Source: an uncultured Candidatus Saccharibacteria bacterium
GTDB taxonomy: Bacteria > Patescibacteriota > Saccharimonadia > Saccharimonadales > JBBQAJ01
Direction of reading: 5' to 3'
NCBI GenBank assembly: GCA_964597925.1
Contig: CAZQZT010000001.1
Location: forward strand, 119,929-183,928
Length of the DNA: 64,000 nt
This document shows, piece after piece, positions 8,433 to 29,955 of this stretch. The first letter of the stretch is position 1; each line of letters begins with the position of its first letter. The position numbers and the translations under genes were made by a program. The notes under the pieces were generated by a model. The model did not search any database and had not been told where the DNA came from. It saw only the letters and a program-made list of their open reading frames with translations.

Positions 8433-8475
8433 TTTTGATTACAGGGCTACAGATGCTATAATCACCCCTGTTATT

Positions 8476-8565
8476 GGAAGGGTGTCCGAGTGGTTGAAGG
8501 AAACGGTCTTGAAAACCGTCGTGCCGGCAACGGTACCGTGGGTTCGAATCCCACCCCTTCCGCCA
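8476..8565 (+). tRNA. tRNA-Ser (anticodon UGA), CCA encoded
   Basis: GGAAGGGTGTCCGAGTGGTTGAAGG...ACGGTCTTGAAAACCGT...GGGTTCGAATCCCACCCCTTCCGCCA. Long variable arm; close to the E. coli serT pattern. Confidence 0.95.
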
Positions 8566-8597
8566 AGTACCCAAAGTCGGCTACAATAATGTTTCGT

Positions 8598-8690
8598 GGA
8601 GGAGTACCCAAGTGGCTGAAGGGGACGGTTTGCTAAATCGTTAGTGGGGAGCAATCTCCAGCGAGAGTTCGAATCTCTCCTCCTCCGCCA
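8598..8690 (+). tRNA. tRNA-Ser (anticodon GCU), CCA encoded
   Basis: GGAGGAGTACCCAAGTGGCTGAAGG...ACGGTTTGCTAAATCGT...GAGAGTTCGAATCTCTCCTCCTCCGCCA. Confidence 0.95.
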
Positions 8691-8700
8691 GAACGAAATG

Positions 8701-8723
8701 CCCAACCCTAGGTTGGGTTTTTT
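8701..8723 (+). terminator. Intrinsic terminator after the tRNA-Ser pair
   Basis: CCCAACC CTA GGTTGGG followed by T6. Confidence 0.65.
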
Positions 8724-8777
8724 GTTCTGTGAGAGATGCGAACTCAAACAAGGTGGGTTTTCTGCTACAATACGCTT

Positions 8778-9494
8778 ATGCAACCGGGAGATACAATCAC
8801 ACCCTTAAAGCAGTCAGAGGATGCTGGGGAGCTTGTAATTCCAAGAAATACAGAAGCTGTAACCCAAGAAGTTCCTGCTACAACTCCCCTTGCCCAAACG
8901 CCAGTAGCAGAACCACCACAAAATCCCGAACCTGCACCACAACCTTCTGAAGACCAAACAGCCAACGAAATGTCACCTCCCCGGCAGTATGAGTCAGAAA
9001 ATGGTTCATACTCAGACCAACAACCACAAATAGATATAAAGCCAGTTAACTGGTCTGCTTCTGAATTTATAGATAACGCAAAAGACACAAAATGGTTTAT
9101 GGGATTGGCCGTAATAACCCTTGCAGTGGTCGTAGTCATATATTTTATGACCCAAGACACGATTACATCAGTGGTCATTATCATGGCTGCTGTGCTGTTT
9201 GGCATTACTGCCAAACGTAAACCTAGAACTCTAGAGTATCAGATTGACCATACTGGCCTAAATATAGGCGGTAAACCTTTTCCATACGAAATTTTTAAAT
9301 CATTTGCAGTCATGAAAGAGGGCGCTTTTAGTTCTATACAGCTAATGCCCCTAAAACGGTTTATGCCCCTCATCAGTCTGTACTACCCTCCGGAGTCCGA
9401 AGATCAAATTGTGACCACGCTAGGCAGTTACCTCCCCCACGAAGACCGCACCCACGACCCTATAGAGCGCCTAATGCGCCGTATCCGGTTCTAG
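8778..9494 (+). CDS. Hypothetical membrane protein (P/Q/E-rich N-terminus, two TM helices, small C-terminal domain)
   Basis: Track ORF 8736..9494. Met15 (8778) is preferred because an extended -10 TGcTACAAT (hexamer 8766-8771) lies exactly 6 nt upstream. TM pair: FMGLAVITLAVVVVIYF / SVVIIMAAVLFGI. Confidence 0.7.
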   Translation: MQPGDTITPLKQSEDAGELVIPRNTEAVTQEVPATTPLAQTPVAEPPQNPEPAPQPSEDQTANEMSPPRQYESENGSYSDQQPQIDIKPVNWSASEFIDNAKDTKWFMGLAVITLAVVVVIYFMTQDTITSVVIIMAAVLFGITAKRKPRTLEYQIDHTGLNIGGKPFPYEIFKSFAVMKEGAFSSIQLMPLKRFMPLISLYYPPESEDQIVTTLGSYLPHEDRTHDPIERLMRRIRF

Positions 9495-10215: not shown

Positions 10216-10292
10216 GCACCCGTAGCTCAGCTGGATAGAGCGTCTGTTTGCGGTACAGGAGGTCGTGCGTTCGAATCGCGCCGGGTGTACCA
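10216..10292 (+). tRNA. tRNA-Arg; hand-folded anticodon reads GCG (needs software confirmation); CCA encoded; integration target
   Basis: GCACCCGTAGCTCAGCTGGATAGAGCG TCTGT TTGCGGT ACAGG AGGTC GTGCGTTCGAATCGCGC CGGGTGT ACCA. The 5' half resembles E. coli tRNA-Arg. Confidence 0.88.
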
Positions 10293-15683: not shown

Positions 15684-15987
15684 CTCAACTAGTTGATTTG
15701 TACACGATAATAATAAAAGTAGTGTTTCATAATTGGTAGCTGTGAATGGTGAAAAATGGCGTTAGGGTTCGGAAATCTGGCCAAAAATTATATGTAGCCA
15801 TACTGTTGCTTGGATTTAGCATTTAGGTGAACGAGATTTAATACCCTCTGTAGGCTCTCTGGAGCTTGCTGGACTAGCTTCTTGACGAAAGTTGGGTAAA
15901 GTTATATGCCGACCAAGAAACAGTGAAACATATACGGGTTCAGACGGTGGAGTAGTATACTGTGGGCAAGGAGTAAATTAAAAACAA

Positions 15988-17091
15988 ATGAACGAACAAT
16001 TTGACCAGCTAGTAAGCTATGTAAAACAACACTTGGATCAGGGTGTGCCAGAAGACCGTATTCGCCAAACCCTGCTACAACATAATTGGAACGCAGATTT
16101 AGTAAATAGGGCTTTTTTGTCAGTAAAGGCTCCACAAACATCTTATCCAGAGTCAGACGCAACCAACCAGCCAAGCAACTTAAATGCCAATAATTGGGAG
16201 CAGCCCAATACTACTCAAGCACAAGCTCCAAGTGCTTATGAACATGCGAATCAAGTCAGCCCAGAATCGAATGCTCCAAAAAAGTACAAAATTTTTCGTG
16301 CGATAGGCGACACTTTTCATGCCATAAAAAACAATGCAGGTGCCTTCTTCCTATCCGTTATTTTAAGTTATGCAGTTGCAGCCGTTTTTCTATTTGTAAT
16401 ATCGTTTATCATTAGCAAGGTTTTGTACGGCGAGTTCGGTTTATTATTTGCTTCTACGTCAAAATTACTAACCGTACTGTTAGGTAGCCTAATTCTTTAT
16501 ACTGCTTGGTACGCTTTGGCAGGAGCATTTATTTTAGCGACCACCTCTTTAGCTCTTTATGATGGCAGCGAGAACCGAAAAAGTTCGTTATCCACTATAT
16601 TATCAAATAGCTTCTCAAGATTAGGCAGAGTGGTTTTAGCCGATATATTATTCTGCCTTGTAGCATTTTGGCCTATTGTATTGATAATATTCTTACCCAT
16701 TATCTTCTTAACAAGTGGGGTCGGCGGGAGCAATTCTTCTCTAATTCTATTGCCAATCCTAATGCTTGTAGCAGTTATCTGGATTTATGTAGCATTGGTA
16801 CGATTTGCACTAGCACCATACGTAGCCCTATTTGAGCCTAATATACCGATTACTAAAACATTGGGTCGCAGTAAGCACCTACTCGTAAAAGGTGGTCAGT
16901 GGTTCTTGGTTAAAGGATTTTTGTTTCTTCTCCTAATCTTAATTTTATTAGCAGTTGCTACTGGTCAAAACCTACCAGAGCTAATGGATTCCAACAACCT
17001 AGCTATCAACATATTTTTGATAATTGTTTCCGTGGTTGTGAACGGTGCTTTAGTTATGCTTTATCACAACCGTAAAATTATAAGAGGGTAG
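15988..17091 (+). CDS. Polytopic membrane protein with a Q/N/P-rich soluble N-terminus (element cargo)
   Basis: 367 aa with about 6 hydrophobic helices after residue 120. AAGGAG lies upstream. Confidence 0.75.
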   Translation: MNEQFDQLVSYVKQHLDQGVPEDRIRQTLLQHNWNADLVNRAFLSVKAPQTSYPESDATNQPSNLNANNWEQPNTTQAQAPSAYEHANQVSPESNAPKKYKIFRAIGDTFHAIKNNAGAFFLSVILSYAVAAVFLFVISFIISKVLYGEFGLLFASTSKLLTVLLGSLILYTAWYALAGAFILATTSLALYDGSENRKSSLSTILSNSFSRLGRVVLADILFCLVAFWPIVLIIFLPIIFLTSGVGGSNSSLILLPILMLVAVIWIYVALVRFALAPYVALFEPNIPITKTLGRSKHLLVKGGQWFLVKGFLFLLLILILLAVATGQNLPELMDSNNLAINIFLIIVSVVVNGALVMLYHNRKIIRG

Positions 17092-20239: not shown

Positions 20240-20331
20240 GGAGGGGTGGCCGAGTGGTTGAAGGCGCTGCTCTCGAAAAGCAGTATTTCGAGCAATCGGA
20301 ATCGAGAGTTCGAATCTCTCCTCCTCCGCCA
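20240..20331 (+). tRNA. tRNA-Ser (anticodon CGA), CCA encoded
   Basis: GGAGGGGTGGCCGAGTGGTTGAAGGCG CTGCT CTCGAAA AGCAG ...GAGAGTTCGAATCTCTCCTCCTCCGCCA. Confidence 0.95.
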
Positions 20332-23303: not shown

Positions 23304-25875
23304 ATCTATTGTATTCTTGCTGTTGCTTGACTAGAAGTTCCTGAGCATCTTCTAGTTGTTGTTTGGTTTGTTTGACTAGGTCTTTCGGTGCTTTGTCTGT
23401 ATAAGCTTTGTTTTTAAGGCGCGCCTCTAGGTTAGTAATGGTTTTTTTGGTTTCAGTCAATTTGTCGGAAAGCTGTTTCGTAAAGCGCTCAATTGTGGCT
23501 TGGTCCAGGTCCAGCCAGCAGGAGTGGTCAGTTTGCGTCAAATGCAAACCATTGCCATCTCGCAATTCGGTTATTTCTGAGACACCTGACAGTTTTTTGA
23601 TGAGCTTTGCATGCTGGGTGATAAACGCGTCCCCTGAATGGTACAAACACGGCTTGCTAGCCCCCACAGCGGCCGTTATAAGCCGTATTTCGGTCACAAC
23701 CTCCATGATGTCCTCAAAAACTGCAGCAGCCTTTTTATTGGCACTAGGAGCCTTTGGCCAACTACTTGAGGCGAGCATACTATCTCCCTCCTCTTTTGCC
23801 ATTTCATCGGTAGGTACATTCCATTTAAGGGTTTGCCAAATAGTTTCGGTAACAAATGGCGCAAACGGATGCGCTAGTTTTAGTATTGTTTCCAGACTGA
23901 AGGCTAGCACGCCTTTGTTTAACGCTGTTTTACTAGCTTCTATATACCAGTCCGCAAAATCATCCCACAACAGATGGTATATGTTGTCATAGGCCTCGGC
24001 AAAACGAGTTTCTTCCAGTAAAGAAGTAACCTGTTTTACAGACTGCTGCAGCTTGCTCAACATCCAAGCATCTGCTGGCGTTTCGGCTTTGAGGCTCGCT
24101 TTGCTTGCAAAATTGTCGTCAATTTTGTCTTCTACATAGCGGGCTACGTTCCATAATTTGTTACAAAAATTACGAGCGGCCACTAGCTTGGCTTCATCAT
24201 ACGACTGATTGTTACCCGCACTCTGGCCGGCAATAATTCCCATTCGAAAAGCATCTGAACCATACTGGTCAATCTTATCCATTGGGTCAACAACGTTGCC
24301 TTTACTTTTGCTCATTTTGGCACCGTGTTCATCTAATACTAGGCCATGCAAGTAGACCTCTTCAAACGGAATCATGTCGGTTACATAGAGCCCGAACATA
24401 ATCATTCGGCTTACCCAGGGGTAAAGTATATCGGCGCCGGTCTCCATGACATTTAGTGGATAGAAATCTTTAGCGTCGGCGCTGTCTGGATAACCCAGCG
24501 TGGCATAGGGCCAGCTAGAACTGCTAAACCATGTATCAAAAACATCTGGATCGCGGCGGTAGGTTTTGCCGTCTTTTTGCAAAATCTCTTCACTAACACC
24601 AGTATCAAAAATCCAGTCGTCACGGTCATCTACATTTTGAAATGCTGGTATGGGTATACCCCAGGCAATTTGCCTACTTATATTCCAGTCGCGTAGGTCT
24701 TTTAGATAGGTGACCAATTGTTTCTTTTTAGTCTCTGGCCGGAATAGTATCTTGCCTGTTTCTAGAGCCTCAATTGCTCTTTTTGCAAGAGGCTTCATAT
24801 TTATGAACCACTGCTCCATGAGCATTGGTTCAATAATCGAGCCACATTTATAGCATTTGCCCATGCGGTTTTTGTAGTGTTCGTCCACTTTTACCAACAA
24901 ATCTTTTTCTTTGAGTGCTTCAACCACTGCCTTGCGGGCCTCTAACACTGTCATGCCCTCAAAACGACCGGCTTTATGATTCATAGTGCCATCGTGGTTT
25001 ATTACCCGCACCGCTGATAAATTATGCCTCTGAGCCACCTCCCAGTCGTCAAAACTATGGGCTGGAGTTATTTTCACCGCCCCTGTTCCAAAGTCAGGAT
25101 CAACAAAATCATCGGCAATAACTTGCACGTCAAATGGACCATTTACGCCCTCAACCGTTACTATTTTTCCAACCCACTCTAGGTAGCGCTTGTCGTCTGG
25201 ATGTACCGCCACAGCTGTGTCACCAAACTTTGTTTCCGGGCGAGTTGTAGCCAATGTAAAAGGCCCATATTTCATGTAATACAATGGTGTTACGGCGTCT
25301 TCATAGGTTACTTCTATATCGGCAAATCCAGTGCGGTGATACGTGCAGTAATTGACCAAGCGCTCACCTCTGTAGATAAGCTTTTCGTCCCACATCTTTT
25401 TAAACGTGGCGTATGCCTGGGCGACGATTTTTTCATCCAACGTGTAGCTGTAATGTGTCCAGTCTAAACTGGCTCCAAGTCGGCGAAACTGAGACTCGTA
25501 ATTGTCTCTGTTTTGAGCTACAAAATCCCAAATATTGCTGTACAGCTCTTCCCTGCTCAGATCAAAACGGCTTTTGCCCTGTTTAGCCAGCTCTTTTTCA
25601 TACACTACTTGGGTTTCAAAGCCGGCGTGGTCAGCTCCTGGCAAAAATAGTGTTTTGTCACCTTTCATACGATGATAACGGATCAAAATATCTTCTATTC
25701 CCAGCGTAAGTCCATGTCCTAGGTGTAAATTACCGTTAGCGTTGGGCGGCGGGATTACAATGCTATAAGTGTTCCCTGTTCCGCGGTCTTTGGGTACAAA
25801 GGCTTGACTGCGCTCCCAGAGAGCGTAAATATCGTCTTCATATTCTTTTGGTTCATAAACCTTCGGTAACTGCAT
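23296..25875 (-). CDS. valS: Valine--tRNA ligase
   Basis: HIGH (PPPNANGNLHLGHGL) and KMSKSKGN motifs with a C-terminal coiled coil. Start at Met15 (25875), supported by the promoter TTGTCA-17-TATACT-7-ATG. Confidence 0.97.
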   Translation of the reverse strand: MQLPKVYEPKEYEDDIYALWERSQAFVPKDRGTGNTYSIVIPPPNANGNLHLGHGLTLGIEDILIRYHRMKGDKTLFLPGADHAGFETQVVYEKELAKQGKSRFDLSREELYSNIWDFVAQNRDNYESQFRRLGASLDWTHYSYTLDEKIVAQAYATFKKMWDEKLIYRGERLVNYCTYHRTGFADIEVTYEDAVTPLYYMKYGPFTLATTRPETKFGDTAVAVHPDDKRYLEWVGKIVTVEGVNGPFDVQVIADDFVDPDFGTGAVKITPAHSFDDWEVAQRHNLSAVRVINHDGTMNHKAGRFEGMTVLEARKAVVEALKEKDLLVKVDEHYKNRMGKCYKCGSIIEPMLMEQWFINMKPLAKRAIEALETGKILFRPETKKKQLVTYLKDLRDWNISRQIAWGIPIPAFQNVDDRDDWIFDTGVSEEILQKDGKTYRRDPDVFDTWFSSSSWPYATLGYPDSADAKDFYPLNVMETGADILYPWVSRMIMFGLYVTDMIPFEEVYLHGLVLDEHGAKMSKSKGNVVDPMDKIDQYGSDAFRMGIIAGQSAGNNQSYDEAKLVAARNFCNKLWNVARYVEDKIDDNFASKASLKAETPADAWMLSKLQQSVKQVTSLLEETRFAEAYDNIYHLLWDDFADWYIEASKTALNKGVLAFSLETILKLAHPFAPFVTETIWQTLKWNVPTDEMAKEEGDSMLASSSWPKAPSANKKAAAVFEDIMEVVTEIRLITAAVGASKPCLYHSGDAFITQHAKLIKKLSGVSEITELRDGNGLHLTQTDHSCWLDLDQATIERFTKQLSDKLTETKKTITNLEARLKNKAYTDKAPKDLVKQTKQQLEDAQELLVKQQQEYNRFK

Positions 25876-25882
25876 GTCTAGC

Positions 25883-25933
25883 AGTATACCCGAACAGAGG
25901 TAAATTGACAAAAACATCCCAAAATGATGAAAT
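25883..25933. promoter_or_regulatory. Back-to-back promoters with overlapping -35 boxes for valS (minus) and the 25940 gene (plus)
   Basis: Minus strand: TTGTCA (25906-25911), 17 nt, TATACT (25883-25888), 7 nt, ATG. Plus strand: TTGACA (25905-25910), 17 nt, TGAAAT (25928-25933), 6 nt, ATG 25940. Confidence 0.5.
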
Positions 25934-26723: not shown

Positions 26724-27803
26724 TCACATACTTAAGTTTGGTTGGATTTCAAGCGTGTAAGGATCTGCTTGTGGTTGATTATGTAGCATCTTAAAACAAC
26801 CTAGGGTGGCTATCATGGCGCCGTTATCAGTGCACAGTTTTGGGTCTGCGTATTCTATGGGGATGGGCAAGCGTTCGGCTAACTGACGGCGAAGTTCTGG
26901 GCTGGCAGATACGCCACCGCCTATAATTACGCTTTTGGGTTGGAACTCTTCATATGCCAGCAAGGTTTTATCTACCACTGTTTCTACGGCTGTGCGCTGG
27001 AAGCTGGCAGCAATATCGGCCTTTTGAGCTTCACTGAGGCGTTCTGACAGCTTATGACTAGGGAAGTCGTATCCTTCACCTATAGCTTTTTGAGCAGCCC
27101 TTAGCACGGCAGTTTTGGGTCCAGAGAAACTGTAGTCGTATTTGCCAGGCATTTTGGCCTTTGGGAAGCTAAATGCCCGAGGGTTACCTTTAACCGAAAA
27201 TTTCTCTATACTGGGGCCGCCAGGGTAGGGCAGGCCTAAAATCTTGGCCACTTTATCAAATGCTTCTCCTATGGCATCATCTTGGGTTTGCCCCAGGAGA
27301 GTATAGTCAAAGTGGTCACGCCATAGCACCAATTGAGAGTGTCCTCCAGAAACAATCAACCCCAGCATCGGAAAACTAGGTGCAGTTTTCGGCAGTTTAT
27401 AGCTTTCATCTGTCGGCTCTGATCTGTCAGCTACTTCAGTTAGGAAGTTTGCATAGGCGTGGGCCTCTACATGGTTTATGGCGTACAAAGGCTTGTTTTT
27501 GGTAATTGCCAGCGTGCGTGCGGTCATTACGCCCACCAACAGACAGCCTCCTAGACCAGCGCCGTATGTGACTGCTATGCCGTCTATGTCATCCCAGCCA
27601 CATCCGGCTTGCTCCAGTGCTTGTTCAATAACAGGGGTGATTGCTTCTATGTGACTGCGGGCGGCAATCTCTGGCACAACACCACCGTATTGGGCATGCA
27701 AATCCATGCTAGAAAGCACCACATTTGCCAGCAGTTTTTTACCATTTTCTACAATCCCGCAAGCGGTCTCATCACAGCTAGTTTCAATACCCAATATTCG
27801 CAT
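26724..27803 (-). CDS. tsaD: tRNA N6-adenosine threonylcarbamoyltransferase TsaD
   Basis: MRILGIETSCDETACGIV...; Kae1/Gcp family throughout. Confidence 0.95.
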   Translation of the reverse strand: MRILGIETSCDETACGIVENGKKLLANVVLSSMDLHAQYGGVVPEIAARSHIEAITPVIEQALEQAGCGWDDIDGIAVTYGAGLGGCLLVGVMTARTLAITKNKPLYAINHVEAHAYANFLTEVADRSEPTDESYKLPKTAPSFPMLGLIVSGGHSQLVLWRDHFDYTLLGQTQDDAIGEAFDKVAKILGLPYPGGPSIEKFSVKGNPRAFSFPKAKMPGKYDYSFSGPKTAVLRAAQKAIGEGYDFPSHKLSERLSEAQKADIAASFQRTAVETVVDKTLLAYEEFQPKSVIIGGGVSASPELRRQLAERLPIPIEYADPKLCTDNGAMIATLGCFKMLHNQPQADPYTLEIQPNLSM

Positions 27804-27809
27804 GAGAGC

Positions 27810-27817
27810 AGTATACT
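27810..27817. promoter_or_regulatory. Palindromic shared -10 (AGTATACT) serving divergent tsaD and murE
   Basis: The intergenic gap is 21 bp. Minus-strand TATACT (27815..27810) is 6 nt from the tsaD ATG (27803). Plus-strand TATACT (27812-27817) is 7 nt from the murE ATG (27825). Confidence 0.55.
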
Positions 27818-27824
27818 AGTAGGT

Positions 27825-29105
27825 ATGGTTAACCCAAAAAAGCTTGTTCGCAAAGTTATGCCTTCAAAAGGTATTGAGTTTGCTGAAGAAAGTTACCGAA
27901 AAGGGCGGATTTACAGTTTGCAGGCGCGGTTTGGGTTTCCGGCCAAGGGACTACGCGTTGTTGCAGTCACTGGGACAAATGGTAAAACCACTACCTGTAG
28001 TTTCATAAACGAAATGCTTAAAACCGCCGGCTACAAAACGGCTATGTATACTACTGCAACCATAGAGTTAGTAGGCAAAGTTATGCCAAATACTACACAT
28101 CGCACACTGCCTCTCACAGAACAGCTTTTGAAGTTCTTGCGCTCTGCCAAAAAAGCAAAAGTTGACTTTGTTGTGCTAGAAGCCCCCAGCCAGGCGCTGC
28201 ATCAGCACAAAATGCTCGGCATCCCTGTAGAAATTGCTGTATTGACCAATCTCAGCCAAGATCATTTGGACTATCACGGAACTATGGCTAGCTACGCTGC
28301 TGCCAAAGCCCGGCTGTTTAACAACTACATGAAGCCTGATTTTTGCGTGCTAAATGCCGATGATGAAAAATACGACTATTTTATGCTCCAATCTGCGGGG
28401 CAGGTAGTTAGTTATGGTCAGGGTTCGGACAGTACGGAGCGGATAAAACAAGTTAAACAGGATCGTACGGGCATGAGCTGGAAGCTTATGAATGGTGAGC
28501 AAGCTATGGATTTGAAAATCCAGCTGGCGGGGCTATTTAACACCTACAACGCCAGTGCAGCAGCGGCTGTAGGATTGATACTGGGCATAAAACCAAAAGT
28601 TATTTCAAAGGGTTTGGCAGAGCTAAAGCTAGTGCCTGGTAGAATGGAAAACATAGACGCCGGCCAACCTTTTACAGTATGGGTTGATTACGCAGTTACA
28701 CCAGATGCGCTGGCCAAGGTATTAGAAGCGGGCAAACAAGCCGCTACGGGCAAAGTAAGCGTAGTTTTTGGTGCTACGGGAGATAGAGATAAAAGCAAAC
28801 GGCCAGTCATGGGCGAGATTGCCGCCAAACAGGCAGACAGAATATACCTAACAGATGATGAAACTTACACCGAAGACCCAGAAACAATTCGCCATGCAGT
28901 CTACGAAGGTATAAAACAAGCCAAAGCCCAGAAGAAAGCCCAGATAATCCCAGACCGTGAACTAGCCATAAAAACAGCCTTCAAAGAAGCCAAAAAAGGC
29001 GATGTAGTCATCTTGGCCGGCATAGGCCACCAAGATACTCGCAATATGGGCGGCAAATCTATCCCTTGGGACGAACGCAAAATCGCTCACAAACTTTTAA
29101 AATAA
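27825..29105 (+). CDS. murE: Mur ligase, MurE-type (UDP-MurNAc-L-Ala-D-Glu:diamino-acid ligase)
   Basis: VAVTGTNGKTTT, DHLDYHGTM, FGATGDRDKSKRP. The start is Met73 of the track ORF. The DNPR specificity motif position reads DETY. Confidence 0.9.
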   Translation: MVNPKKLVRKVMPSKGIEFAEESYRKGRIYSLQARFGFPAKGLRVVAVTGTNGKTTTCSFINEMLKTAGYKTAMYTTATIELVGKVMPNTTHRTLPLTEQLLKFLRSAKKAKVDFVVLEAPSQALHQHKMLGIPVEIAVLTNLSQDHLDYHGTMASYAAAKARLFNNYMKPDFCVLNADDEKYDYFMLQSAGQVVSYGQGSDSTERIKQVKQDRTGMSWKLMNGEQAMDLKIQLAGLFNTYNASAAAAVGLILGIKPKVISKGLAELKLVPGRMENIDAGQPFTVWVDYAVTPDALAKVLEAGKQAATGKVSVVFGATGDRDKSKRPVMGEIAAKQADRIYLTDDETYTEDPETIRHAVYEGIKQAKAQKKAQIIPDRELAIKTAFKEAKKGDVVILAGIGHQDTRNMGGKSIPWDERKIAHKLLK

Positions 29106-29112
29106 CAGATTA

Positions 29113-29142
29113 TTGACATTATAACCATAAGTGTGATATAAT
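29113..29142 (+). promoter_or_regulatory. Near-consensus sigma-70 promoter (TTGACA-18-TGaTATAAT) predicting a leaderless mRNA
   Basis: TTGACA 29113-29118 and TATAAT 29137-29142. The A of ATG 29149 lies exactly 7 nt after the hexamer. Confidence 0.65.
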
Positions 29143-29148
29143 ATTTAT

Positions 29149-29955
29149 ATGAGCAAAAAACTTAAACCTTTCACTTCGGGAATGCCTTTTCGTACTGAAA
29201 TTGGACCGACACTTGGTAAAGGACAAGATAATGCTGTATATGATATGGTTTACCCTGCAGATAAACCGCACCTTCGACCTTCGTCAGGCCAAGTTCTAAA
29301 GATAAATCATGCCACGGTAAATGATTACCGTATCAGATATGAGGATAACAGAAAAGCTGCAATGGCCGGACTGGAATACAAGAAAAATAAATACGATATC
29401 TTGAAGCTATTTTTAGGTGATTTTGTGCCACGTTCTTCGTTTGTTCTGGCGAAGGTCACAGAAGGTCAAAAGCAACGTTACGCTGAGTATACAGTACAAG
29501 ATAAGGTACCGCGCCTGTCGCTTTCTGACCTTACCGAGGCGCAGAGGCAAAGTCCAGTCTTAAAACAACAAGTAGTTGAGCTAATGTCTCGTCTACGCCG
29601 AATGTATCAAGTGCTGGGTGAGGTAAACGCCAGAACTTCAAATGGTGTAAATTTGGATGGTAAGCTAGATCTTGGCGGTGTTTCTGATTATGTGAAAGCA
29701 GAATCGCTTGACCATGAGTTTAGTCAATCTGATGCTGAAGCGATTATTGGCGGTAACAGTTCACCAAACCTGCTAGTAAATCCCAAAACCATGGCACTGT
29801 ACTGTGTAGATTTTGACCAAGGTCAATGGATGCCTGGTATGGATGAAGCTAAGAATTTGACATTTGAATTAGCCGAAAGACAAAACTCGTCCGCAGAACC
29901 GATAGGTAATGTGGCAATTGACCACCCAGAATTACCATTTTATCAGTTCAAATAA
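29149..29955 (+). CDS. Hypothetical protein with protein-kinase-like sequence features
   Basis: LGKGQDNAVYDM (Gly-loop-like), QVLKINH (VAIK-like), NLLVNPKTMALYCVDFDQG (catalytic-loop Asn plus a DFD in the DFG position). Fold assignment is inference. Confidence 0.7.
   Translation: MSKKLKPFTSGMPFRTEIGPTLGKGQDNAVYDMVYPADKPHLRPSSGQVLKINHATVNDYRIRYEDNRKAAMAGLEYKKNKYDILKLFLGDFVPRSSFVLAKVTEGQKQRYAEYTVQDKVPRLSLSDLTEAQRQSPVLKQQVVELMSRLRRMYQVLGEVNARTSNGVNLDGKLDLGGVSDYVKAESLDHEFSQSDAEAIIGGNSSPNLLVNPKTMALYCVDFDQGQWMPGMDEAKNLTFELAERQNSSAEPIGNVAIDHPELPFYQFK

Follow-up and report, generated by a model that had tools for sequence, protein, structure and literature searches.

A conserved 21-bp gap between divergent tsaD and murE genes in Saccharibacteria as a predicted bidirectional promoter for two leaderless mRNAs

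Divergent genes with a compact common control region have a classical example in phage lambda, where PRM, the promoter of the leaderless cI mRNA, and PR stand back to back as separate promoters, whose start sites are tens of bp from each other and which polymerases can occupy together, and with operators for the repressor. The locus described here, the gap between tsaD and murE in the genome of an uncultured Saccharibacteria (CPR) bacterium, shares with this pair the divergent genes and the compact common control region, and one of the lambda mRNAs starts at its AUG; it differs in the physical overlap of its -10 boxes and in lacking an evident regulator site. Closer in organization are the bidirectional promoters (hereafter of the Warman/Grainger type), which are common in bacteria and in which divergent transcription start sites (TSSs) lie 7–25 bp apart as a result of the symmetry of the -10 element (bioRxiv 10.1101/2020.01.31.928960; PMC10268837; PMC12825309). 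In Escherichia coli, the commonest separation between the two TSSs is 18 bp; separations of 10 and 23 bp are frequent as well (bioRxiv 10.1101/2020.01.31.928960). Steric constraints bar the simultaneous binding of two polymerases at such promoters; at basal activity one direction is without effect on the other, and the partner is repressed only when one direction is strongly activated (PMC12825309). [quoted passage not shown] We consider it likely that the tsaD-murE gap unites both features, being a minimal bidirectional σ70-type promoter of the Warman/Grainger type in which one palindromic -10 element would serve two leaderless mRNAs.

The window, i.e. the whole 64-kb stretch of DNA that was analysed, carries tsaD on the minus strand (26724–27803, 359 aa, start ATG at 27803–27801) and murE on the plus strand (27825–29105, 426 aa). 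The 21 nt that separate them (27804–27824) read GAGAGCAGTATACTAGTAGGT, with CAT at 27801–27803 corresponding to the tsaD ATG and ATG at 27825 opening murE, exactly as given in the initial annotation. TsaD matches NCBIfam TIGR03723 with 377 bits, and since position 1 of the profile aligns with residue 3 of the protein, the start of TsaD at MRILGIETSCDET, an N-terminus conserved in all relatives, is secure. MurE matches TIGR01085 with 382 bits from profile position 71 onwards and represents a short form without the N-terminal Mur ligase domain. Nearly all of its 120 homologues (59–99% identity; those bearing a name are labelled Candidatus Saccharibacteria) measure 425–430 aa and begin with M(V/N/D)(N)PKKLVRKV, an agreement in length and N-terminus that identifies ATG 27825 as the real start of murE. 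A longer murE ORF from TTG 27609 was rejected, as 195 nt of it would lie within tsaD and none of the homologues supports it. The gene order valS-tsaD<>murE-hypothetical-groES-groEL is found again on a 776-kb contig of a relative.

Within the gap, AGTATACT at 27810–27817 is a perfect palindrome, equal to its own reverse complement. These 8 bp comprise a predicted -10 hexamer TATACT on each strand, the two overlapping by 4 bp (TATA): the murE hexamer occupies 27812–27817 on the plus strand, 7 nt upstream of ATG 27825, and the tsaD hexamer 27810–27815 on the minus strand (read 27815–27810), 6 nt upstream of ATG 27803. The sequence check thus bears out the palindrome and both distances as originally noticed. 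RNA polymerase could bind this element in either orientation. In one of them, transcription would start at the A of the tsaD ATG (27803), which lies at the canonical distance of 7 nt from the -7T at 27810 and has C at -1 and A at +1; in the other, the same spacing from 27817 would place the start at T27824 or, more likely, at A27825, the A of the murE ATG, given the preference of the promoter set of the window for a pyrimidine at -1 and a purine at +1. The divergent TSSs would accordingly lie 21–22 bp apart, and both mRNAs would be leaderless and translated without an SD sequence. The overlap of the two -10 boxes is a consequence of the short distance, below about 26 nt, between the start codons, and we infer that the 4-bp overlap is the register that lets both strands carry a full TATAAT (ATTATAAT).

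Other promoter determinants are scarce. Neither promoter has a good -35 box or the TG of an extended -10, so that both are probably weak, and the promoter scan called neither of them because both lack a -35. A possible weak -35-like TTGGGT for tsaD can be read from the sequence at 27832–27837 on the minus strand, with a 16-nt spacer and within murE codons 3–5, but it is of low confidence and was likewise left uncalled by the promoter scan. An Rfam scan of the window placed no RNA element inside the gap.

Compared with Warman/Grainger promoters, the locus has in common a near-symmetrical -10 element read on both strands, the hexamers at 27812–27817(+) and 27815–27810(-) sharing TATA within a perfect palindrome, predicted TSSs whose separation falls within 7–25 bp, products that are both mRNAs, and binding modes that exclude each other sterically. 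It diverges from them in register, the overlap being 4 bp here, whereas the 18-bp class relies on reciprocal -11A/-7T pairing and the 23-bp class, by our own derivation, on a 2-bp overlap. Furthermore, both transcripts are predicted to be leaderless, with start codons only 21 nt apart, the TSSs here are predicted ones, and the organism belongs to the Saccharibacteria (CPR), in contrast with the proteobacteria, actinobacteria and firmicutes considered in bioRxiv 10.1101/2020.01.31.928960. Several points speak against the shared promoter: the poor -35 and extended -10 determinants on both sides, a tsaD spacing that is less constant in relatives, an octamer that is not over-represented in the window, and the predicted separation of 21–22 bp, which, though inside the 7–25 bp range, is not among the spacings preferred in E. 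coli (18, 10 and 23 bp).

In both orientations, the contacts of σ region 2 and the transcription bubble would make use of the same 8 bp, and hence only one polymerase should be bound at a time. The mutual exclusion of polymerases put forward in the initial annotation is thus physically sound, and it has already been stated for promoters of this kind (PMC12825309); a regulatory consequence, however, is not implied by it, as competition is negligible at basal activity. Since the promoters are probably weak, poor in -35 determinants and of the housekeeping sort, real competition between polymerases is probably small here, and meaningful competition is doubtful. It is improbable, in our judgement, that the overlapping -10 boxes were selected as a regulator-free either/or device setting the tsaD:murE ratio, in a lineage that would moreover be an unrecognised leaderless-dominant one. 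Were this so, every start of transcription would assign the single site to either tsaD or murE. The proportion between a tRNA-modification enzyme and a cell-wall enzyme would thereby be fixed and the noise of both dampened, in a reduced genome whose transcription factors may be few; and the leaderless dominance of Saccharibacteria would resemble that of Actinobacteria, the hosts of cultivated members such as strain BB001.

The translation signals were assessed by duplex energies against a generic anti-SD, a sequence that had to be assumed since the 16S rRNA lies outside the window. Pairing amounts to +0.7 kcal/mol for tsaD and to -3.9 kcal/mol for murE, where it abuts the ATG, in comparison with -5 to -9 kcal/mol for the SD-led operon-internal genes of the window, such as groEL. 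By this measure, neither gene possesses a usable SD at a functional distance. Of the original statement that the gap leaves no room for 5' UTRs or SD sequences, the second part therefore stands, whereas the first does not hold strictly, as a leader could come from a promoter within the opposite gene, although nothing points to one. In several relatives an SD-like AGGAG(G) is found only 1–2 nt upstream of the murE ATG (L097 at 1494–1500, L093 and L103); it is too near for a canonical SD and may be a purine-rich discriminator or a relic.

AT-rich, unstructured starts are able to support SD-less initiation in some bacteria. Transcription of both genes could begin at promoters within the coding sequence across the gap, or the genes could belong to longer transcripts, with SD-independent internal initiation and with the TATACT boxes being incidental, and the AGGAG(G) adjoining the murE ATG in several relatives might be taken in the same sense. 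Nevertheless, that motif is too close to the start codon to act canonically, the promoter scan returned no candidate upstream promoter for tsaD or murE between 26400 and 29300, and this genome does use an SD where there is a leader. Moreover, incidental boxes would leave unexplained both the fixed position of the murE hexamer across lineages and the peak of -10 signals seen throughout the window, which are described below. We regard distant promoters as decidedly unlikely.

The window-wide pattern was derived from gene calls that take the first ATG of each long ORF, a crude procedure but one applied identically to the controls. A TAnnnT hexamer ending 6–9 nt upstream of the first ATG is present in 25/59 window genes, against about 9% for all ATGs of the window. 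With murE and tsaD excluded, the signal is found for 21/57 genes (37%) in the window and for 22/60 (37%) at other Saccharibacteria loci, while the same pipeline yields 26/265 (10%) at non-Saccharibacteria loci (Fisher p about 2e-6); at the control distance of 20–23 nt the respective values are 9%, 5% and 5%. The negative control set consists of the non-Saccharibacteria loci listed by a contig scan with a full-length MurE alignment. Among the matches listed, that scan returned mostly distant bacteria via generic Mur ligase motifs, L001–L003, L014 and L018 being the useful ones; the informative relatives come from a metagenome scan with the clade-specific MurE N-terminus and from exact-protein look-ups. 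The signal also depends on gene position, being present at 32/48 genes that are first in their unit (divergent, or preceded by a gap of at least 40 nt) versus 3/12 closely following, operon-internal genes, 6/12 of which have an SD only. In the promoter set of the window, the -35 is barely conserved, TG shows a mild enrichment at -15/-14, and the base at -1 is in most cases a pyrimidine. The best explanation is that a leaderless start is the usual mode of expression for the first gene of a transcription unit in this Saccharibacteria genome, with operon-internal genes using an SD.

In these respects the genome resembles group C. Like leaderless genes there, tsaD and murE have a -10 box at 6 and 7 nt, respectively, begin with ATG, are devoid of a functional SD and are first in their units, and the Pribnow box at 6–8 nt from first-gene starts, together with SD sequences at operon-internal genes, is a signal seen across the window; the 37% of window genes that show it is comparable with the 25–50% of transcripts given for group C. 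The differences are that two predicted leaderless promoters are here fused in one palindrome, and that the main text of PMC6028130 makes no mention of Saccharibacteria.

Several other sites of the window illustrate the same architecture or deviate from it. A textbook case lies near murE, TTGACA-18-TATAAT-6-ATG at 29113–29149, a perfect consensus with TG before the -10, located 43 nt past the murE stop and preceding a 268-aa protein; from its sequence, it looks like a strong leaderless promoter of that gene. The protein itself matched no NCBIfam family, and a gene at the matching position in L097, L099 and L100 makes it clade-conserved, though uncharacterised. For valS, on the minus strand, the longest ORF starts at 25917, whereas a protein of 859 aa, as long as the one called in L097, results from TATACT-7-ATG at 25875; this second position is probably the real start, and its transcript would then also be leaderless. 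Four further divergent pairs, 44287(-)/44350(+), 45299(-)/45358(+), 46389(-)/46483(+) and 4274(-)/4370(+), with gaps of 58–95 nt, have separate -10 boxes some 6–9 nt upstream of their ATGs (44350 being less secure) and are, as read from these elements, predicted back-to-back leaderless promoters with non-overlapping boxes. The second copy of AGTATACT in the window, at 15954–15961, is situated 26 nt upstream of the ATG at 15988 with AAGGAG in between, and looks like a leadered, SD-using promoter. The same layout recurs in L014 (2920–3001), where AGTATACT is followed by GAGAGGAG, 8 nt and ATG; the gene downstream encodes a Mur ligase with only 35% identity to MurE and diverges from a tsaD with 76% identity. 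Finally, the Rfam scan found four tRNAs (8476–8562, 8598–8687, 10216–10289 and 20240–20328) and no rRNA in the window, and a 114-aa ORF at 8439–8783 on the minus strand, which overlaps the first two of these tRNAs, is almost certainly spurious.

Conservation at the locus itself is informative for both genes. The octamer AGTATACT is kept, in gaps of 21–27 nt, in seven lineages, in all of which the murE spacing is 7 nt. The first comprises the window and L106, whose MurE is 99% identical and whose 21-nt intergenic region is the same as that of the window. The others are L102 (MurE 83% identical, gap 21 nt, gagggcAGTATACTagtaggt), L105 (78%, 22 nt, gtgagcaAGTATACTagtaggt), L097 (81%, 22 nt, gagagcaAGTATACTaggaggg), L086 (22 nt, cagaacaAGTATACTaggacat), L088/L089 (24 nt, ttccaagtaAGTATACTaggtgga) and L090 (27 nt, attcggttaccaAGTATACTactaggc). 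When the pairs with 21–22 nt are aligned, the core CAGTATACTAG is invariant and the flanks drift. L093 and L096, with 23-nt gaps, have the hexamer pairs TATAAT/TACAGT and TATCAT/TACATT, respectively, which overlap by 2 bp and lie 6–7 nt from each start. On a broader scale, a murE -10 hexamer (TAnnnT) is found 6–8 nt upstream of the ATG in about 21/23 Saccharibacteria lineages, irrespective of whether tsaD is adjacent; those in which murE has another upstream neighbour and keeps the hexamer at this distance include L003, L081, L083–L085, L087, L092, L098, L100 and L104. Of five lineages without an adjacent tsaD, three have lost the AG needed for the complete palindrome (L104 cgTATACT, L100 tgTATACT, L098 gcTATAAT), a loss that may serve as an evolutionary proxy for mutation of the shared element, while the murE TAnnnT stays at 7 nt. 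The unit conserved for murE is therefore the hexamer and not the palindrome.

A perfect 8-bp dyad placed centrally between divergent genes could, in principle, also be the operator of a dimeric transcription factor co-regulating tsaD and murE, or a product of chance. In the window as in the relatives, however, the dyad symmetry spans no more than 8 bp, whereas an operator would be expected to extend over about 12–20 bp and to recur at other regulated genes, and the 2 copies of the octamer in the 64-kb window, against 1.2 expected, are no over-representation. The significance of the octamer thus has no support from frequency and is a matter of its position and of its conservation in relatives. 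Conservation in seven lineages rules out pure chance, and the palindrome is dispensable once tsaD is absent, with hexamer and spacing persisting. On these grounds, the operator and chance readings were rejected as very improbable; the pattern across the compared loci is, at the level of sequence, the one predicted by a -10 element for each gene and not the one predicted by an operator.

The tsaD side is less constant. Its spacing is 6–7 nt in L106, L102, L105, L097 and L086, but longer elsewhere (9 nt in L088 and L014, 11 nt in L001, 12 nt in L090 and 14 nt in L082). This variation, together with the missing box in L103, is the reason for supposing that tsaD may have a short leader in some lineages. 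It also lends itself to the reading that only the murE-facing hexamer works as a leaderless promoter, tsaD being leadered from another start and the palindrome arising as a by-product of TATACT following AG. Such a reading would fit the murE spacing fixed at 6–8 nt in nearly all lineages, the tsaD spacing ranging over 6–14 nt, the lack of a box before tsaD in L103, and the retention of AGTATACT upstream of murE in L099 and L103 although tsaD is 184–228 nt away. It is at odds with the 6–7 nt tsaD spacing of the tight pairs in five lineages, with the disappearance of AG from three of the five lineages in which tsaD is not adjacent, with the independent TAnnnT box exactly 7 nt from the tsaD start in L091, L093, L096 and L099, and with the lack of an SD at tsaD, and we hold it to be unlikely.

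The two lineages with distant genes differ from each other. In L099, an insertion parts tsaD, which here starts with GTG, from murE, and each of the two genes has a copy of the box to itself, 7 nt from its start. The copies are carried, one on each arm, by a 25-nt inverted repeat (1320–1344 and 1473–1497; 88% complementary) with 128 nt between the arms, an arrangement suggesting that the shared box underwent an inverted duplication or was broken up by an insertion whose ends are inverted. In L103 (MurE 80% identical), 228 nt (373–600) lie between tsaD and murE, with an A-rich stretch upstream of tsaD and no -10 box at a leaderless distance before it; this lineage may have changed to leadered expression of tsaD.

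Taken together, canonical spacing, the lack of SD pairing, the window-wide enrichment of -10 signals and conservation agree in supporting the original proposal of one palindromic -10 for both genes as leaderless or near-leaderless mRNAs, which is still a prediction. Leaderless mRNAs and bidirectional promoters with a shared -10 are both established, and the locus is a conserved example and not a new mechanism. Their predicted combination is a neat extreme case, in which two essential genes would both be leaderless, with 21 bp separating their start codons and with conservation across species. Within the literature that was searchable, queries on leaderless mRNAs covering Saccharibacteria, TM7, Patescibacteria and CPR brought up no paper on the subject, only hits in reference lists. 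The only TSS set that we know of for the phylum comprises 188 TSSs from RNA-seq of Nanosynbacter lyticus TM7x (PMID 35975994, as cited in PMC12641261), and because of it the observation at the level of the clade may already be partly known.

If confirmed, the gap would be approximately the smallest complete control region for two essential genes, consisting of 21 bp without leaders, ribosome-binding sites or evident regulator sites, and it would offer a clean natural substrate for studying RNA polymerase competition at bidirectional promoters. More generally, the recurrence of -10 signals at leaderless distance indicates that in Saccharibacteria a large proportion of the transcription units is probably expressed in leaderless form, which would bear on the calling of gene starts in CPR genomes, on how expression constructs are designed for the genetic systems newly available in these bacteria, and on views of the spread and age of leaderless translation.
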